From Thermodesulfovibrionales bacterium (GTDB lineage Bacteria > Nitrospirota > Thermodesulfovibrionia > Thermodesulfovibrionales > SM23-35): a stretch of 64,000 bases of DNA. Where the stretch lies: NCBI GenBank assembly GCA_963715195.1, contig CAVQRT010000031.1, positions 64,001 to 128,000 of the forward strand, given 5' to 3'. Position 1 is the stretch's first letter. Every line of letters begins with the position of its first letter. The notes under the pieces are model-generated. The model did not search any database and was not told the DNA's origin. It saw only the letters and a list, made by a program, of their open reading frames with translations. The translations under genes and the position numbers were made by a program. This document shows, piece after piece, positions 2,902-19,540 of the stretch.

Positions 2902-4444
2902 ATGAAAAAACTGAGAATAGTCTCTCAGGGCATTTTCCTGTTACTTTTCGTCTTCCTCTTTATCCAGACGGAATCAAAAGGGGATGACACGCTCGGCTAC
3001 CCCGTAAGGCTTTTCCTCGACTTTGACCCGCTTATTTTTCTCACCACATTTCTGGCAGCGCGGGCGAAGGAACTACCTGCCGCCTTCTTTCTCTCCCTGA
3101 TTGTAGTGCTTATGACCATGGTGCTCGGAAGGGTATTCTGCGGTTGGATATGCCCCCTGGGGACGCTGAATAATATCGTAGGATCTTTGAAAAAGCGCTC
3201 CATCAAACCGATATATTCCCTCTACAGAATCAAATACTACATCCTCATCATGCTCATCATTACATCGGTATTCACGCTCCAAATTGCCGGCATCATGGAC
3301 CCCTTATCCTTACTCATCAGGTCTTTTTCACTGAGCGTTTACCCTCTGATAAACTACGGCTTGCACAGTTTTTTTGACACAATTTACCATGCAAATATTT
3401 CTCTGATCGTTGACCTGTCTGAATCAGTCTACGCCTTTCTGAAAAAGTCTTTTCTCGCATTCCGTCAGCCTCACTATCTTCAGGCGGTATTTATCGGCTT
3501 GCTGTTCTTTTCGATATTAGCCCTGAATATCGTCGAGAAAAGATTCTGGTGCAAATATCTCTGCCCGCTGGGTGCCCTTCTCGGGCTCTTGTCCCGGTTC
3601 TCCCTCCTCAAGCGCGAAGTAAGTGAAGGGTGCACCTCATGCGGAATATGTAACGCCTCTTGCCAGGGAGGAGCACTTGCCGAGAACAAACAGGAATGGA
3701 GAAACACAGAATGTTTCGCCTGTTTCACCTGCGATGATGTCTGTCCGAACAATGCGGTACGCTTCGGCATCGGGGAAAAAGATGGTTCCGTCCATGGATC
3801 TCGGCAGGAGGCAATTGATCCTTTCGATGCTCTCGGGTTTCATCGCTGTGCCGCTGATACGGTCAACGCCTTTTGCCCGGACGCATTTTTCAAACCCTGA
3901 ATTGCTGAGACCGCCGGGTGCACTCGAAGAAAAGGAGTTTCTGAAACGATGTGTAAAATGCGGCGAATGCATGAAAGTCTGCACAACAAATGGCCTGCAG
4001 CCTGCCTTTCTCGAATCAGGATTTGAAGGCCTCTGGTCTCCGCGGCTTATCCCGAGAATTGGATACTGTGAATACCGATGCTCGCTCTGCGGGCAGGTCT
4101 GCCCGTCCGGCGCAATCCAAAAACTGCCCCTGGAGGAAAAAGTAAAAGTTAAGATCGGTCTTGCAATGATTGATACAGGCAGATGCCTGCCTCATGCACA
4201 CGGAATCCCCTGCATCGTATGTGAAGAAGTCTGCCCGACACCAAAAAAGGCGATATGGTTCGAGGAAAAGACGGTAAAAAACAGAGAAGGGCTGGATACT
4301 TTCGTAAAACAGCCGCATGTTGACCTTGATCTCTGCATTGGCTGCGGCATATGTGAAGCAAAGTGCCCCGTCGGGACAAAAGCAGCTATCTACGTGACCA
4401 GTATCGGGGAGTCCCGGTCACCATCAAATCAACTTCTCCTGTAG
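2902..4444 (+). CDS. Membrane polyferredoxin (NapH/MauN-like plus NapG/MauM-like 4Fe-4S protein); one frameshift near 3772-3775
   Basis: GRVFCGWICPLG, RFWCKYLCPLG and CxxCxxC motifs in ORF 2902-3900; LRPPGA and several CxxCxxC in ORF 3623-4444; frames join at a G-run. Confidence 0.8.
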
Positions 4445-11460: not shown

Positions 11461-12255
11461 TCAGGGTTTTTTTGCCTTGACGTATGCCGAAAACACCATA
11501 TTCTCTACCCCTTCTCCGAAATTCCATCCTCTGATTATTTCATTACTCTTTTCTTTTTCCTTAATTATAGGTTTGGCAAATCCAGCTTTTTGGAGCATCC
11601 TCTTCAGTTCCTCCACGGGAACCGCACCGGTGATTCAGCCACTGTAGGCTTTCTCATTCTGCTTTATCGCTTCAGAGAATTCACCCTTTTTCAGGATATC
11701 CGAGATTGCCAGCCTCCCTCCCGGCTTTAGTACCCTGAATGCCTCCTGGAAGACCGCTTGTTTGTTTGGAGACAGATTGATTACGCAGTTCGATATAATC
11801 ACATCGACTGAATTGTCATCAACAGGAAGATGCTCAATATCTCCGTGCCTGAAATCAACATTCTTAAAGCTGAGTTTTTCTGCATTATCTTTAGCCTTTT
11901 GAACCATTTCCGGCGTCATATCCACTCCGATGACATATCCTTTCTTCCCCACTTTCATTGCGGAAAGAAACGCATCAAAGCCGGCACCACTTCCGAGGTC
12001 AAGAACGTGCTCTCCTTCTTTCAGCTCCGCTATTGCAAGAGGATTACCGCATCCAAGTCCGAGGTTTGCTTCGCCAAGCCCGATCTTCAAATCTTCTTCG
12101 GAATATCCTATAAGTTTTCCCGTTTCGAGAAGGCTCAGAGGTTTTATCTCAGGCGAGCAACATGTTGCGGGCATCGCACAGCATGAACCTTGTGAAGCGA
12201 TATTCGAATAGGTCTTTATCACAAGCTGTTTCAGTTTTGTTTTTTCTTTGTTCAT
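11461..12255 (-). CDS. arsM: Arsenite S-adenosylmethionine methyltransferase, predicted selenoprotein (TGA at 11635-11637; 264 aa with readthrough)
   Basis: [33 protein letters not shown]; frame continues [21 protein letters not shown]...[11 protein letters not shown]. Confidence 0.9.
11605..11624 (-). promoter_or_regulatory. Candidate bacterial SECIS of arsM
   Basis: CGGTTCC-CGTGGA-GGAACTG hairpin after a 10-nt spacer from the UGA; G in second loop position. Confidence 0.65.
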
Positions 12256-12266
12256 TATGATCTCAC

Positions 12267-12950
12267 TTATATGATTTCAAAAATATATGCAAGGCTGTAG
12301 TAGATTCCTACCAGAATAAAAATAGTACCAGTCACCTTTTTTGTATAAAACTCAATTCTTGCAATTCTGTAATAGAGATTGTTGATATACCCTGTGCCTG
12401 CTGCGACAAGAAAAGCAAAGAGCAGGACCGGAAGAGCTGTTCCGATCCCATAAATTAATGGGAGCCCTATCCCTGACTGTGCTTTCACTGCAATGGGAAT
12501 CAACCCTCCGAAGAACAGGGCGGCAGACACAGGACAAAATGCAAGGGCAAACAGGATTCCCAGAGGTAGTGAACCAATTGCTCCCTTATCAATCAACTTC
12601 TTTGTGACATCTTCGGATACCGATGGGATAGGTAAGGGTATTCGCAACAGGTCAAGCAGTACCATCCCGACGAGAATCAGTATGATGCCGAGGATTTTGT
12701 TGACATATCTCTGGAGGAAATCCGACAGGATCGGAACATCTACCAATGTTTTCACAATAAGGACACCAAGAACGATGTACGTGAGGCTTCTTCCAATGGT
12801 ATAGAGTATGCCGGATAAGAACACGACATTTTTCTGTGTAATTCTCTGTGATATAAATGATACAGCTGCTATATTCGTAGCCAATGGACAGGGACTGACA
12901 GATGTCAAAATCCCAAGCCAGACGGCTGAAGCCAGTAAGAACAATTCCAT
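12267..12950 (-). CDS. arsG: ArsG-family (CcdA/DsbD-like) membrane protein
   Basis: [13 protein letters not shown] and [14 protein letters not shown] motifs, multiple TM helices, ars context. Confidence 0.75.
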
Positions 12951-12953
12951 TGG

Positions 12954-13538
12954 TTATGTTTCCTTGAGAAATTTTCCTACTTCTTCTTTTACATACTGAA
13001 AGAATTTGTCTTTGTCTCTTACATGCTTCCATACGTCAGTAAGGTTCTTCCAGGTTACTTCCTTATCCTGCTTTACAAGAGAAATCACGAGGGATTTACT
13101 AAATAACTGGTAATCTTGAACATAGTGACGGTTTTCTGCTTCTTCAACATTAATAGGTTTAAATTCAAGTGTTCCGTTCTTCAGCTCGTTTGCGAAGTAC
13201 TGTTCAATGGCTTCTTTTGAATACTTCTCAATAGTCTGACATGTCGAACATCTGAATGTACCATGGAAATAATAGGCAATAACCTTTGCATTTTCAGCCT
13301 TTATTGTGGTTTCAGGCGAAGGAAGAGGCTTCTGTTGTTTCGTTGTAGTTTCTTCTGATGACTGGCTATCCGGGGCCGGTGCAGATTTCTCGGATGTGGC
13401 AATTGTATTGCTCTGTGTTGCTGTGATGTCTGTGGCATTACTTTCACTTCTCGGTGAGAATTCCTTATACATAAGAACCCCCAAACTCACAATCACGAAA
13501 ATGAAGAGCAGACTTTTAATCGTTTTTCTGATATCCAA
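12954..13538 (-). CDS. arsF: ArsF-family thioredoxin-like exported protein
   Basis: YYFHGTFRCSTC and WKNLTDVW motifs; immediately upstream of arsG. Confidence 0.7.
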   Translation of the reverse strand: MDIRKTIKSLLFIFVIVSLGVLMYKEFSPRSESNATDITATQSNTIATSEKSAPAPDSQSSEETTTKQQKPLPSPETTIKAENAKVIAYYFHGTFRCSTCQTIEKYSKEAIEQYFANELKNGTLEFKPINVEEAENRHYVQDYQLFSKSLVISLVKQDKEVTWKNLTDVWKHVRDKDKFFQYVKEEVGKFLKET

Positions 13539-13557: not shown

Positions 13558-14736
13558 TTATTCAATTATTGCTCCAAAAATTATTCCAGAAATCGTTGCC
13601 ATTATGACAACCAGACATACAAACACAATGGTCTTCTTTGTCCCTATTGCACGCCTGATAACCAGCATGTTGGGTAAGCTCAAAGCCGGACCTGCAAGAA
13701 GAAGGGCCAGCGCAGGACCTTTGCCCATTCCTGATCCAATCAGCCCCTGAAGTATCGGCACTTCTGTAAGGGTTGCAAAATACATGAATGCGCCAACAAA
13801 AGAAGAAAAGAAATTAGCGAAAAAGGAATTGCCACCGACCAGGTTGCGATATACTGTGAAGGGATGATTCCTTCATATCCGACTCTCCCGAGGAGAAATC
13901 CTGCAGCGAGAACGCCGCCTAAAAGAAGAGGCAGGATTTGTAGTGCAAGAATCCAGGATTGCTGTGTCCATTCTTTCAGTTCATCTTTCTTGAACCACTT
14001 TATAAGCATGACTGACAAAGAAAGAGCAAAAAAACCTGTAATCCACCATTTGTAATGATAGATCAGCCACCAGAGATTATGGGTCTCTTCAGGCGGTTTT
14101 CCCCAGTTTGCAAAGACGAGTATTGCGACCATCGAAAAGAAATAGGGGATTGTTTTCCCAAGAGAACGAACCTCTTTGGCATCGCTGAAATCGAAATCTT
14201 CTCCTTCCTGACGTGCTCTCTCCTCTTTCAGGAAGATAAGATGCATCAGGAGTCCGATCACAACACTGAAAACAACCGCACCGATTGCCCTTGCTAATCC
14301 CAGTTCCCATCCGAGTATTCGGGCGGTGAGAATGATAGCCAGCACATTGATTGCAGGACCGGAATAGAGGAATGCGATTGCAGGACCAAGACCTGCTCCC
14401 TCTCTGGTAGATGCCCATGAACAGGGGAAGGATTGTACATGAACATACCGCAAGGATTGAACCTGATACAGAAGCGACCGAGTATGAAAGGAATTTATTC
14501 GCCTTTGCCCCGAAATATTTCATTACCGAAGCCTGGCTGACAAATACCACGATGGCGCCTGCGATGAAGAAAGCAGGAATAAGGCAGAGCAGGACATGTT
14601 CCCGTGCATACCACTTGGTCAATGCAAGAGATTCATTGACTGCATTGGTAAACCGTGCATTCTCGATCGGCAGAAAATAGCAGATGAGAAACACTGTCAG
14701 GACAATCAGAAATTTGTATCTTTCTTTCATTTTCAT
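13558..14736 (-). CDS. arsP: DUF318/ArsP-family permease; two frameshifts (~14399, ~13840)
   Basis: EHVLLCLIPAFFIAGA, LAVCSCTILPLF, FLYSGPAIN, MYFATLTEVPI, LLAGPALSLP spread across three overlapping ORFs. Confidence 0.8.
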
Positions 14737-14751
14737 AAAGGCTTTGTACTT

Positions 14752-15811
14752 TCAATCTTGCAATACTCGGTCAGCAAAGTATTTCCTCTGAAAATAGAGT
14801 GCTACATTTACCAGTCCGATTAACACAGGAACTTCTACGAGAGGACCTATAACGGTTGCAAAGGCTACTCCGGAATTAATGCCAAACACTGCTACAGCAA
14901 CAGCAATGGCCAGCTCAAAATCATTGGAGGCAGCGGTAAAGCTCAACGTGGCGGATTTCGGATAATTCGCTCCAATTTTCTTTGCGATATAGAATGTGAC
15001 CAGGAACATAAAAACAAAATATATGAAAAGAGGGATGGCAATCCTTACCACATCAACAGGAAGCTTGATGATATATTCTCCTTTCAGGGAAAACATCACA
15101 AAGATGGTAAAAAGGAGTGCAACAAGGGTAATAGGGCTTATCTTGGGAATGAATTTATCATGATACCATTGCTTGCCTTTTGCGCTGACGAGAGTGAAAC
15201 GGGTGATTATGCCTCCGAGGAATGGTATCCCGAGGTATATGAATACACTCTTGGCAATTTCGCCAATCGTTACGTCAACAACAGCACCGCTAAGCCCGAG
15301 CATGGGAGGAAGTATCGTGACAAAGATCCACGCATAGACTGAATATGTAAGTACCTGAAACAGGGCATTAAAGGCAACCAGTCCGGCAACATAATCTGGG
15401 TCACCGCAGGCAAGATCATTCCATACGAGCACCATTGCGATACAGCGGGCAAGTCCTACAAGGATGATGCCGATCATATAGTCGGGATAACCTGATAGGA
15501 ACAATAATCGCCAGAACAAACATTACAATCGGCCCGACAATCCAGTTCTGGATGAGGCTTACTGCAAGAATCTTATAATTGCTGAAGACCTTTGGCAGTT
15601 CTTCATATCGGACCTTTGCCAGAGGCGGATACATCATCAGGATTAATCCAACAGCTATCGGGATATTGGTTGTACCAACCTGGAAAATGTTCCAGAAATC
15701 GGTAATCTTCGGATAAAAATACCCTGAAATAACCCCAACAGCCATAGCAAGGAAGATCCACAAGGTGAGAAATCGGTCAAGGAATGAAAGTTTTTTCACT
15801 ACTTCAGCCAT
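14752..15811 (-). CDS. acr3: ACR3-family arsenite efflux transporter; one frameshift (~15502)
   Basis: [46 protein letters not shown]. Confidence 0.92.
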
Positions 15812-16223
15812 GCTGTACTTCCTTGATAAAATCCAAAAGTCGCTCCTTGATTTCATTTCGGATTCTTCTAAACTCATTCAGTATTTCTTCCTCGGTGCCC
15901 TCAGCCTTTGCTGGGTCTTGAAGAGGCCAGTGAATTCTTGTGATCCCGGGAGGTGTCCATGGGCAGGCTTCAGCAGCATTGTCGCAGAGGGTGATAATAA
16001 CATCCATCTTCTTGAGCAGTTCTTCATCGACTGATTTTGACGTCTGGTTTGAAATATCTATGCCAATTTCTTTCATCACAGCGACAGCACGGGGATTTAC
16101 TCCCTGAGGACTGAGACCAGAGCTGTGTGCTTCAATCAGACCTTTCCCCAATTCCCGTGTAAAGCCCTCTGCCATCTGGGAACGGCAGGAATTCCCTGTG
16201 CATAAAAACATGATTTTCAGCAT
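15804..16223 (-). CDS. arsC: Arsenate reductase (LMW-PTP, thioredoxin-coupled)
   Basis: [17 protein letters not shown]...ACP, HWPLQDP. Confidence 0.92.
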
Positions 16224-16224
16224 A

Positions 16225-16597
16225 CTACCTCCCGCAGCAACTGCTCCTGAATTTCATCGGAACGACTTTCTCTTCTTTAGATTTGAGAAATTCTTGGAGT
16301 CTTATTTTGTCTGAATGAATTAAATCTCCTGTAGCTTTTTCGATAGTCGAGAAAAGAAGAAACCTCCTGAATATTTCTGAATCATCAAGACGATAATGAA
16401 TCCACTTGCCTACCCTTCTGTCTTTAACAAGTCCCGCTTCCTTGAGTACCCTTAAGATGAAAGGATATTTTCGGCTGAATAATATCAAGCGATGCGATAA
16501 TATCGCATACACAGAGTTCACCATGTTCCAATAGTTTTATTATTCTCAGCCGTGTCTCATCGGAGAGAGCCTTATACACTTGCAAGAGATCTTTCAT
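16225..16597 (-). CDS. arsR: ArsR/SmtB repressor; one frameshift (~16453)
   Basis: Manual translation from 16597 MKDLLQVYKALSDETRLRIIKLLEHGELCVCDII...ISFH joins VLKEAGLVKDRRVGKWIHYRL; ELCVCD As-sensing motif. Confidence 0.88.
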
Positions 16598-16598
16598 C

Positions 16599-16838
16599 CT
16601 ATGACTCCTTCTTGAGTAAATCTTTTACTTTTTCAATCGTCGGAAGTGGTTTGCCGGAATATTTCAGCTTGCCGTTTATCACAATCCCGGGAGTGGACAT
16701 CGTATACTTCATAATCTCGAACATGTCTGTAACCTTTTCTACCTTTGCGTCAATTCCAAGCTCCTTAACAGCGGCTTTTACCATCTCCTCTACCTTTTGA
16801 CAATTTGGGCAACCGGGTCCCAATACCTTAATTTCCAT
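16599..16838 (-). CDS. Small redox-active disulfide protein (MTH895/ArsE-like thioredoxin)
   Basis: IKVLGPGCPNC, MSTPGIVING. Confidence 0.85.
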   Translation of the reverse strand: MEIKVLGPGCPNCQKVEEMVKAAVKELGIDAKVEKVTDMFEIMKYTMSTPGIVINGKLKYSGKPLPTIEKVKDLLKKES

Positions 16839-16985
16839 ACCTTAATCCTCCTTATTAAATAGTGCTGAAATTAACCTGATAAATTCTTATATTAGATAGA
16901 AGCATGTGTATGTGAATCGGATAAATTGCTTTAAATAAAAAGAATCATGTTCAAAATATAAATTATTATTTATATGTAAGTCAAC

Positions 16986-17294
16986 ATGAAAATTGATTGT
17001 TACCTATCAAGAGGCTGTGCAGCCGAGAGTGTTTTAAGGGAGAACATAAATCAGGCCCTTATCCAAGAAGGTCTGCATGCTGAGGTAAATTATTACAGAA
17101 TATCAGAAGGGGAAGCAGAGAAGCTCAGTCTAAAAGGTTCCCCTTCGATATTGATTGATGGAAGGGATATACAGCCGATGAATGTGCAGGGGTTTTCTTG
17201 AAGAACGTTTATGGATGAGTCTGGAAGGCTCTCGCCAGCCCCTTCTATTGCAACACTGAGGCGTGTTATCAGAGAATCAATAATAAAGACTTAA
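16986..17294 (+). CDS. Thioredoxin-fold protein, predicted selenoprotein (TGA at 17199-17201; 102 aa with readthrough)
   Basis: GSPSILIDGRD then FS-U-RTFMDESGRLSPAPSIATLRRVIRESIIKT*; hairpin GAGTC-TGGAA-GGCTC at 17217-17231. Confidence 0.75.
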
Positions 17295-17569: not shown

Positions 17570-17605
17570 GGTAAATGTATGAATTTACAACAAGAGGAGG
17601 GTACT

Positions 17606-18865
17606 ATGAAGAAATTTGGGGTTGTCATCTTGGTTGTACTGTTTTTGTTGTCGTTATCTGCCATCGCTTCGGCAACAAACGGATACTTTACTCACGGTTA
17701 CAGTATCAAAAACAAGGCATTGGCCGGTGCCGGAGTTGCGCTGCCGCTTGATGCTCTGTCAGCATCAATGAACCCGGCAGGAATGGTCTCTGTAGGCACG
17801 AGGATTGATGTTGGCCTCACATTATTTAACCCCAACCGAGAATATACGATAAAAGGAACCCCATCTCCACCTCCTGCTTTTGGTCTGATGCCGGGTACAG
17901 TCGAAAGCGATTCGGAATGGTTCGTAATCCCTGCATTTGGCTTCAATAAAATGCTGAATGAAAGGAGCTCACTGGGGGTATCGATTTACGGCAACGGCGG
18001 AATGAATACTGATTATGACACCAATACATTTTATCTTTCATCTCCGACGGGAGTCGACCTCATGCAATTATTTTTGGCCCCTACTTATGCAATAAAGCTT
18101 CATCCGAAACATGCAGTAGGTATCAGCCCGATTCTGGCATATCAGAGTTTTGAGGCACAGGGACTTCAGGCTTTTGGCAATTTTTCAACCAATCCGTCAA
18201 AACTTACTAATAATGGGCATGATAAATCATTTGGATATGGAGTGAGGATCGGATATCTCGGTGAGGTCCTAACAGATTTGTTCCTCGGTGTTTCATATCA
18301 GACCAAAATTTTTATGGACGAATTTGACGATTATAAAGGTCTCTTTGCGGAACAGGGAGATTTTGATATTCCTTCCAACTGGACTATTGGGGTTGCCTAC
18401 AAGGCAACCCCGTCCCTCACCTTTGCGGCCGATGTACAAACTATTTATTACGGTGAAGTCGATTCAATCGCAAATCCTCTTGTCGCAAGCAAATTAGTGC
18501 AGGGCAAAACACCTCTTGGAAGCGACAAAGGAGCGGGGTTTGGCTGGGATGATATGACCATCTTTAAATTTGGAGTTCAATGGCAGAGCAGTGAAGACTG
18601 GATATGGAGAGGCGGTTTTTCATACGGGGAACAGCCGATTCCTGACAGTGAGGTGCTCTTCAATATCCTCGCTCCCGGTGTTATTGAATACCATGCGACA
18701 TTGGGAGTGACAAAGAAAATGGGCAATAACCATGAACTGGATTTTACCATCATGCGGGGATTTCCGAAAGAAGTCGAAGGCACGAATCCATTAGACCCGC
18801 AGCAGACGATCAAACTGAAAATGGATCAGTGGGAATTCTCGGCAGGGTATTCCTATAAATTCTAG
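17606..18865 (+). CDS. FadL/TodX (OMPP1) outer-membrane transporter
   Basis: Signal peptide, ATNGYFTHG, NPAG, GNGGMNTDY, C-terminal YSYKF; RBS GAGGAGG. Confidence 0.85.
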   Translation: MKKFGVVILVVLFLLSLSAIASATNGYFTHGYSIKNKALAGAGVALPLDALSASMNPAGMVSVGTRIDVGLTLFNPNREYTIKGTPSPPPAFGLMPGTVESDSEWFVIPAFGFNKMLNERSSLGVSIYGNGGMNTDYDTNTFYLSSPTGVDLMQLFLAPTYAIKLHPKHAVGISPILAYQSFEAQGLQAFGNFSTNPSKLTNNGHDKSFGYGVRIGYLGEVLTDLFLGVSYQTKIFMDEFDDYKGLFAEQGDFDIPSNWTIGVAYKATPSLTFAADVQTIYYGEVDSIANPLVASKLVQGKTPLGSDKGAGFGWDDMTIFKFGVQWQSSEDWIWRGGFSYGEQPIPDSEVLFNILAPGVIEYHATLGVTKKMGNNHELDFTIMRGFPKEVEGTNPLDPQQTIKLKMDQWEFSAGYSYKF

Positions 18866-18944: not shown

Positions 18945-19406
18945 CTATGTGTAAAGGAGGACCTTGCAGTCCTTTGCGTGTTTGAGAAAATCTTCTGCTG
19001 ACTGGATTACTACTCCATCAATAAAATCCTTCTGTTTAAACCCCATCATATCAGTTGTCATCTTGCAGGCTATAAACTTCACTCCTTCAAGCAGAGCCAT
19101 CTCCTGGAGATCTCCGAGCCCCGGGATATTGGCCTTTGTCAGCTTGCTTTTCATCATCCAGGTAGCAATTGAAGACATTCCCGGAACAGCTCCCATAAAT
19201 CCGGGGGGTTGAAATTTAGCCTTGTCAACCCATCCTTGACGTATTACGTTCAGTCCCATAAAAGTGTAAAAGATTGTTGCATCCATACCCAAACGCACAG
19301 CATTGATCCCAAGAACAAGCCCTGGGTAGGCACCATCAAGGGTATCCTTTGATGTAATAAACGCTGCTGCTTCTTTGATCTTTTTCCCTTCTTCACCTGG
19401 TTTCAT
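18945..19406 (-). CDS. DsrE/DsrF/DrsH-like (DsrE2-type) sulfur-relay protein
   Basis: TLDGAYP, IFYTFMGL, GVKFIACKMTTDMMG. Confidence 0.8.
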   Translation of the reverse strand: MKPGEEGKKIKEAAAFITSKDTLDGAYPGLVLGINAVRLGMDATIFYTFMGLNVIRQGWVDKAKFQPPGFMGAVPGMSSIATWMMKSKLTKANIPGLGDLQEMALLEGVKFIACKMTTDMMGFKQKDFIDGVVIQSAEDFLKHAKDCKVLLYT

Positions 19407-19540
19407 ATACTCCTCTCTTTCATTTTCTATCGGGCCTGTTTTCATTCATTCTTGAACCATCTTTGATTGAAAGCAGACCTGAATATATTTAATCCTAATA
19501 ATGATACAGCACGCGAGAAAAGTCAAATGTTCTAATGAAT

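Follow-up and report, generated by a model that had tools for sequence, protein, structure and literature searches.

Does a short thioredoxin-like gene beside an arsenic (ars) cluster end at its in-frame TGA, or is this codon read as selenocysteine (Sec), and what would the longer protein do there? The question is raised by one locus in the window, by which we mean the whole analyzed stretch of 64,000 nucleotides (nt) from a Thermodesulfovibrionales bacterium. The locus has the following features:

16986..17294, plus strand: gene for a predicted DF-family-like thioredoxin-fold selenoprotein, 102 amino acids (aa) plus TAA, with the ATG start at 16986
16998..17000, plus strand: Cys5, in strand beta1; typical of the Sec clade only
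17016..17018, plus strand: Cys11, aligned with the first Cys of the thioredoxin CxxC; Sec in three other loci
17136..17144, plus strand: Gly-Ser-Pro 51-53, at the position of the thioredoxin cis-Pro loop; aligned to the xPT loop of PDB 1fo5
17199..17201, plus strand: in-frame TGA, predicted Sec72, at the Cys of the family motif C-R-x-(Y/F) as seen in homologs
17217..17231, plus strand: SECIS-like hairpin overlapping codons 78-82; its loop starts 20 nt after the UGA

Codon 72 and the downstream hairpin

The initial annotation had described a 71-aa open reading frame that ends in GFS-TGA but continues, and had proposed that Sec takes the place of a motif Cys. The frame indeed runs on for 30 codons past the TGA at 17199-17201 up to the TAA at 17292-17294, and full-length homologs have Cys at the TGA position. 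In an alignment of 139 representatives, taken from the best 150 after 11 proteins of more than 200 aa had been left out, column 72 holds Cys in 76 rows, a gap in 53, mostly from proteins that terminate there, and another residue in 10. Four close metagenomic relatives (P0014, P0015, P0019, and P0061) carry R, H, L, or W at this position. All 12 database protein matches reach residues 1-71 only, and a database protein from a Thermodesulfovibrionales bacterium shares 73% identity across this part.

Six-frame searching of 201 genomes from the order gave 60 match rows in 56 genomes, and homologs with an in-frame TGA were found in 54 of the 201. The TGA is present in 57 of the 60 rows (once in 55, twice in 2); the three rows without it are one fragment and two Cys-type fusion proteins. 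We extracted 31 genes, namely 30 loci and the second copy from the source genome, and the TGA is codon 72 in every one of them. Amino acid identity among these genes is 0.63 for codons 73-96 vs 0.59 for codons 2-71, and mismatches are biased to third positions both before and after the TGA. The part 3' of the TGA is thus conserved like coding sequence. No in-frame stop occurs within 23 codons past the TGA in any of the 31, whereas the other two frames are interrupted in 28 and 29 of them, so the readthrough signal is far beyond chance. The second copy (G000:C6:28187-28495) is 63% identical to the window gene and has the same TGA and hairpin. Reads from two related DNA sequencing runs gave no coverage at the TGA.

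The source genome contains the tRNA-Sec gene selC, together with selA, selB, and selD over their profile cut-offs; selD has a TGA of its own. Co-occurrence with selA (50/54 TGA-bearing genomes vs 179/201 overall) did not discriminate and is uninformative, because so many of the genomes have this gene. Homologs have Cys or UGA opposite the in-frame UGA of this locus, the coding sequence downstream is conserved, and the genome has selA, selB, selC, and selD. We predict with near certainty that the UGA at codon 72 is read as Sec.

Re-initiation at a Met just past the TGA was considered and rejected, since this Met is missing from many members. A changed genetic code was also rejected: neighboring genes, arsC and arsM, terminate in TGA, which is therefore an ordinary stop in the source genome, with no general recoding. 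At the 5' end, no clear Shine-Dalgarno sequence precedes the ATG (16975-16988), and the two codons before it are Val-Asn after a stop, here and in loci L040, L041, and L043. Promoter and terminator scans gave chance-level results only.

Next, the hairpin was evaluated. In the bSECIS model given in the Fig. 2 legend of PMC13188914, a stem of 4-16 bp carries a loop of 3-9 nt with a G in the first two loop positions, lies 16-37 nt from the UGA, and has an MFE of -7.5 kcal/mol or lower. The hairpin GAGTC-TGGAA-GGCTC, which had been placed at 17217-17231 and is found there, agrees with this legend (stem 5-6 bp, loop UGGAA, 20-nt spacing, -8.1 kcal/mol for 17199-17240). Taken alone, the window gene gave no signal: against shuffles the region 17199-17240 was no better than chance (z 0.19), and z -2.86 was reached only with a 21-nt piece chosen around the hairpin. 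Synonymous recoding yielded p 0.27 for the window gene and a median p of 0.12 over 31 genes, 12 of which were under 0.1. With the first 30 sequences, covariation by pair counting was not significant (43 of 500 shuffles scored as high), and RNAalifold missed the hairpin and returned another, weak structure.

SECIS covariation, suggested in the initial annotation as a check, was present across a set of 56 more diverse sequences. Here, base pairing holds in 97.1% of cells for the 5-bp core and in 23-43% for slid registers. Three core pairs show two-sided changes, with 1 of 500 shuffles scoring as high, and none of 500 matched the covariation score of a 7-bp version; these counts overstate independence because the sequences are kin, and the stem falls within conserved codons, a caveat on all hairpin statistics. 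Codon choice under the stem is narrow: Glu78 is GAG in 45/45 cases (vs 47% upstream), Arg81 is NGR in 49/49 (vs 73%), and Leu82 is CTY in 53/54 (vs 44%). The significance of the hairpin arises only across homologs, not in the single gene. In loci L012-L014, L018, L019, and L023, which belong to one family, codon 78 has changed from Glu to Ala or Pro, which disrupts the usual stem; five of the six form a shifted hairpin in its place, with the Ser codon TCG.

Sites with a TGA plus hairpin in the source genome include selD and arsM. They were also seen in six long frames (G000:C3:45305, C3:283983, and C7:377890 on the plus strand; C7:343253, C10:5473, and C14:10236 on the minus strand), which by motif we take to be formate dehydrogenase-, DsbA/DsbC-, RnfB-, and GrdB-like. 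The source genome is probably selenoprotein-rich.

Predicted fold and the Cys11 and Sec72 sites

An AlphaFold2 model built with a 95-row alignment (pLDDT 92) shows the order strand-helix-strand-helix-strand, followed toward the C terminus by a helix. Foldseek found thioredoxins weakly (best E 1.3e-3), and a second structural alignment returned thioredoxins and fold-switched KaiB at Z 7.5-8.9, with an rmsd of 2.1-3.0 over 71-83 of the 102 residues; among the matches of both searches there was no close solved structure. Pfam gave a weak Thioredoxin_3 match only. The protein is predicted to have a thioredoxin fold, of which the 71-aa form would be without the last helix.

The only other Cys had been assigned to the N-terminal CYLSRGC. 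The location held, but the number did not, as this motif has two cysteines, Cys5 and Cys11. Cys11 is found in 126/139 representative rows vs 42/139 for Cys5; among 55 Sec-type loci, it is missing from only two, which belong to a single genome. Cys5 is clade-specific: it replaces a hydrophobic core residue and occurs in 48 of the 55 Sec-type loci, whereas Cys-type relatives are mostly hydrophobic there. A complete CxxC is absent from the window protein, which reads C-A-A-E with Glu14 where the resolving Cys would be, and position 14 is Cys in none of the 55 Sec-type loci. The 95-row alignment shows no variation at S52, P53, R73, and P86; we infer the cis state of Pro53.

The family profile matches thioredoxins of the MJ0307/MTH895 type (1fo5) at positions 1-61 and 85-101, with Cys11 as the first Cys of CPHC. 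Because this alignment skips the region 62-84, Sec72-Arg73 would fall within some 20 inserted residues that precede the last helix. In the thioredoxin topology, the insertion point before the last helix is on the active-site face. The pairing of Cys with Sec raised in the initial annotation is plausible from conservation and fold position, and this location makes it likely that Cys11 and Sec72 of the modeled protein form a thiol/selenol pair.

The MTH895/ArsE and MJ0307 thioredoxins (TIGR00412; PDB 1ilo, 1fo5, and 1nho) share the minimal thioredoxin fold, the first Cys of CxxC, and the Pro loop, and those of the MTH895/ArsE type likewise occur in ars clusters, one of them adjoining the window gene. 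In contrast to the window protein with its Glu at position 14, they have the full CxxC and do not have the roughly 20-residue insertion with Sec72-Arg73. DUF2703 (PF10865) is a related domain, also thioredoxin-like, in which a Cys-Arg motif precedes the last helix. It occurs in ars clusters, at locus L094, which matches both PF10865 and NF049942, and in the cluster described in the available text of PMC6514093. Unlike the window protein, it has CxxC, extra cysteines, and a longer insert, and PF10865 gave no match for the window protein at E 0.1. Like the window gene, the selenoproteins SaoT (NF040730), ArsM, and SaoL are tied to heavy-metal or metalloid neighborhoods, and metal-ligand roles have been suggested for such small selenoproteins linked to ars/mer genes (PMC13188914, available text). 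SaoT, however, has its Sec in a UxxC motif according to the same text, and NF040730 did not match the window protein.

Relationship to the DF family

The sole NCBIfam match of the window protein was NF049942, "DF family (seleno)protein" (E 1.5e-13, residues 4-92). Model positions 2-94 of 96 are matched, which indicates homology over the whole domain, and the score rises from 39.2 bits without the tail to 50.6 bits with it. As this is below the cut-off of 70 bits, we regard the protein as belonging to a divergent sister clade and not as a formal NF049942 member. Six further members of the clade score 43-64 bits, and the founder of the family, when read through, scores 91 bits. The 95-row alignment shows that the (G/S)PT loop and both conserved Cys/Sec sites are shared with the NF049942 family.

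The founder, "hypothetical protein DF," was predicted by deep-Sep from one gene of Desulfosediminicola flagellatus, and the available text of PMC12013277 reports no conserved domain and no Sec-containing homolog elsewhere. The founder sequence printed there has Sec near the N terminus and ends at FGIS, and a 2026 review gives the DF protein with one Sec (PMC13188914, available text). Founder and window protein have the same domain, and both are predicted selenoproteins. They differ in the position of Sec: in the founder it was published for the N-terminal site, where the window protein has Cys11 (TGT), whereas the predicted Sec of the window protein is at the C-terminal site.

A pattern scan found the founder genome and three related loci. 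All four have an in-frame TGA at the Sec72 position, after which a hairpin is present and the frame continues. The founder gene (L037:3848-4156, plus strand, D. flagellatus IMCC35005) has the second TGA and the hairpin where the printed sequence ends. Cys11 and Sec72 of the window protein align with the two TGA sites of the founder, so the published Sec would be at the other site and the founder would carry two. The Cys11 position is a further TGA in the founder and in L039 and a Cys in L038; the start of L036 is out of frame. Judging from these sites, the DF founder is likely a 103-aa double selenoprotein, and L039 is likely a double selenoprotein too. Sec at the Cys11 site is confined to L037, L039, and L079; the last (4081-4383, minus strand) is a member of the window clade with TGA at both positions. 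Within the family, Cys and Sec replace one another at both sites.

In a quick tree of 129 rows, the window protein falls into a clade of 57 rows, all with Sec72 (SH-aLRT 99), separate from a founder clade of three rows (SH-aLRT 99). This tree requires two changes for Sec72, although a single origin is conceivable. The literature searched did not describe a Sec at the C-terminal site. NCBI may already know it, because the 96-position NF049942 model spans both sites; Sec72 may already be carried by the NF049942 seed or comment, by RefSeq WP_419720682.1, or by BSepDB records. As far as sequence comparison goes, the window protein represents a divergent DF-like clade with its predicted Sec at a site unreported in the literature searched.

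Gene neighborhoods and possible function

The gene had been described as divergent from the ars operon. It does lie opposite to the cluster, with 147 bp between them. The cluster comprises the following genes:

16599..16838, minus strand: small thioredoxin of the MTH895/ArsE type (CPNC), first gene of the cluster; TIGR00412 90.6 bits, cut-off 62
16225..16597, minus strand: arsR, split by a one-base frameshift relative to intact relatives
15804..16223, minus strand: arsC, thioredoxin-dependent arsenate reductase; TIGR02691 179.1 bits, cut-off 174.3
14752..15811, minus strand: acr3 arsenite exporter, split by a one-base frameshift relative to intact relatives
13558..14736, minus strand: ArsP-like permease (PF03773 cluster), two frameshifts relative to intact relatives
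12954..13538, minus strand: arsF family gene; NF040494 125.8 bits, cut-off 60
12267..12950, minus strand: arsG family permease; NF040495 274.4 bits, cut-off 200
11461..12255, minus strand: arsM arsenite methyltransferase; in-frame TGA at 11635-11637, hairpin after it

The four frameshifts (13558-16597; one each in arsR and acr3, two in the permease gene) are possibly assembly indel errors. A second acr3 on contig C30 is broken too, and low-depth contigs of a related strain have one base missing near the acr3 break, which hints weakly at an error of the assembly. The arsM frame continues past its TGA (YSG-U-ITG) to 264 aa, and a stem-loop follows. ArsM is a catalogued selenoprotein family, and arsM likely encodes the other selenoprotein of this cluster. 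Downstream of the window gene lie an outer-membrane porin of the OMPP1/FadL/TodX type (17579-18865, plus strand) and a DsrE2-like sulfur carrier (18945-19445, minus strand), neither of which was linked to the selenoprotein gene at other loci.

Enrichment of ars/mer genes around homologs had been proposed as a check, and the neighborhoods proved rich in them. We inspected 60 regions of up to 12 kb, a chosen subset of the matches (55 Sec-type, 4 Cys-type, and 1 DUF2703). From the order itself come 37 of the Sec-type loci; ars, mer, or CDF genes stand beside 26 of them and none beside 11, and random windows of the source genome contain such genes in 2.3%. More specifically, 18 of the 37 have arsC, acr3, an ArsP-like permease, or an ArsE-type thioredoxin, 5 have merA, merT, or merB, and 4 have a CDF exporter. 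The DF-type gene is on the same strand within runs of ars genes at many loci, and the second copy in the source genome again faces away from genes for an ArsE-type thioredoxin, ArsR, and a permease. Among 18 Sec-type loci from another class, 3 are MerB fusions, 12 lie beside a CMD/AhpD-like gene, none is near arsC or acr3, and 15 are without ars, mer, or CDF neighbors. The subclade behind the CMD/AhpD-like gene (L081, L083, L085, L086, L088-L091, L095, L096, L098, and L099) is often accompanied by ferredoxin, or by thioredoxins, rubrerythrin, flavodoxin, and a Fur-family regulator, and an oxidative-stress use of the same selenoprotein is possible there.

Fusion proteins were found in both branches. 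Sec-type fusions to the organomercurial lyase MerB, assigned by Pfam in L062 and by clustering in the others, occur in five loci (L062, 6048-7031; L067; L082; L084; L087) and in broken form in L050. The L062 fusion sits behind merT and merA. Ordinary ORF calling splits these fusions at the TGA. In one locus (L010/L047), a Sec-type DF protein is fused to an ArsE-type thioredoxin; a single-sequence model of this type of fusion had low confidence (pLDDT 65, pTM 0.44). Cys-type DF proteins are fused with ArsC in three loci, and a scan of 21 long relatives added Cys-type fusions to MerB (3), MerT plus HMA (2), MerC (3, including L093), and HMA (1).

We propose that the window gene encodes a small Cys11/Sec72 carrier that would serve the neighboring arsenic and mercury detoxification genes. 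The hairpin just downstream would assist Sec insertion at codon 72. Cys11 would occupy the nucleophile position of thioredoxin without a resolving Cys, and Sec72 with the invariant Arg73 would stand on an inserted loop that rejoins the fold at the active-site face. The pair could then capture As(III) or Hg(II), or organic compounds of either, and pass the metal(loid) to or from partners such as MerB, MerT/HMA, ArsC, or exporters, while the adjacent CxxC thioredoxin would keep the carrier reduced. A role in metal(loid) detoxification is probable. Whether the protein would capture metal rather than act as a plain reductase is evenly balanced; we favor the carrier because transport and lyase proteins are frequent among the fusion partners and the gene already has a true CxxC thioredoxin beside it. 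The explanation as a whole, including readthrough at Sec72, has about an even chance of being correct.

The protein might instead be an atypical thiol-disulfide oxidoreductase in which Cys11 attacks and Sec72 resolves as a selenenylsulfide, recycling ArsC or AhpD-like partners. This main alternative is possible, if on the doubtful side. It would suit the predicted thioredoxin fold with a Cys at the nucleophile position and a Pro loop, and a role of this kind was suggested, as a suggestion only, for a related DUF2703 protein in an ars cluster (PMC6514093, available text). The neighboring ArsC is of the thioredoxin-dependent type, Cys-type DF-ArsC fusions exist, and 12 of the 18 loci of the other class have the CMD/AhpD-like context. 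However, a canonical CPNC thioredoxin is already next door and is even fused to a DF-type protein. Further, the fusions to MerT plus HMA, MerC, HMA, and MerB join the domain to metal-handling proteins, none of which is known to be a disulfide substrate.

A general redox or stress selenoprotein, linked to ars/mer genes only by shared mobile islands or regulation, is unlikely. The orientation of the window gene, on the strand opposite to the ars cluster, would fit it, as would the loci lacking ars/mer/CDF neighbors (11/37 in the order and 15/18 in the other class); the recurrent in-frame fusions to MerB, ArsC, MerT-HMA, and MerC in Sec- and Cys-type branches, and the same-strand placement inside ars gene runs, argue against it. 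Last, the TGA could be a true stop, giving a 71-aa protein or a pseudogene, or could encode another residue under a different genetic code. The 71-aa form in databases and the several frameshifts nearby in the assembly are compatible with a stop, but the tail is under coding constraint in 31/31 genes and supplies the last helix of the predicted fold, the position aligns with Cys in relatives, and the same TGA lies inside the MerB fusions, ahead of the entire MerB domain. A different code is at odds with the TGA ends of arsC and arsM. We consider these readings highly improbable.

Returning to the carrier, we tentatively suggest, at somewhat less than even confidence, that DF-type proteins capture metal(loid)s in ars and mer systems as a module with two Cys/Sec sites, widespread but overlooked. 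Two or more recruitments of Sec to the C-terminal site would have taken place, each accompanied by a separate SECIS. This Sec would be fixed in a lineage-wide clade that is truncated in annotation and includes Sec-containing MerB fusions, and the founder would be a double-Sec protein. Anaerobic sediment bacteria would then have a selenium-based handle on arsenic and organomercury. The advance is incremental, because ars/mer selenoproteins are an already recognized theme and the NCBI model spans both sites. Reading codon 72 as Sec would correct a systematic annotation error, since the clade is stored as 71-aa fragments and its MerB fusions are cut in two at this codon. It would also add a second Sec site, and members with two Sec, to a family that, in the available text of its description, was published from one sequence and with no function, and the family would gain a testable context in arsenic and mercury detoxification. 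Together with arsM, two selenoproteins in one ars cluster would bear on how selenium supply relates to arsenic and mercury tolerance in anaerobes.
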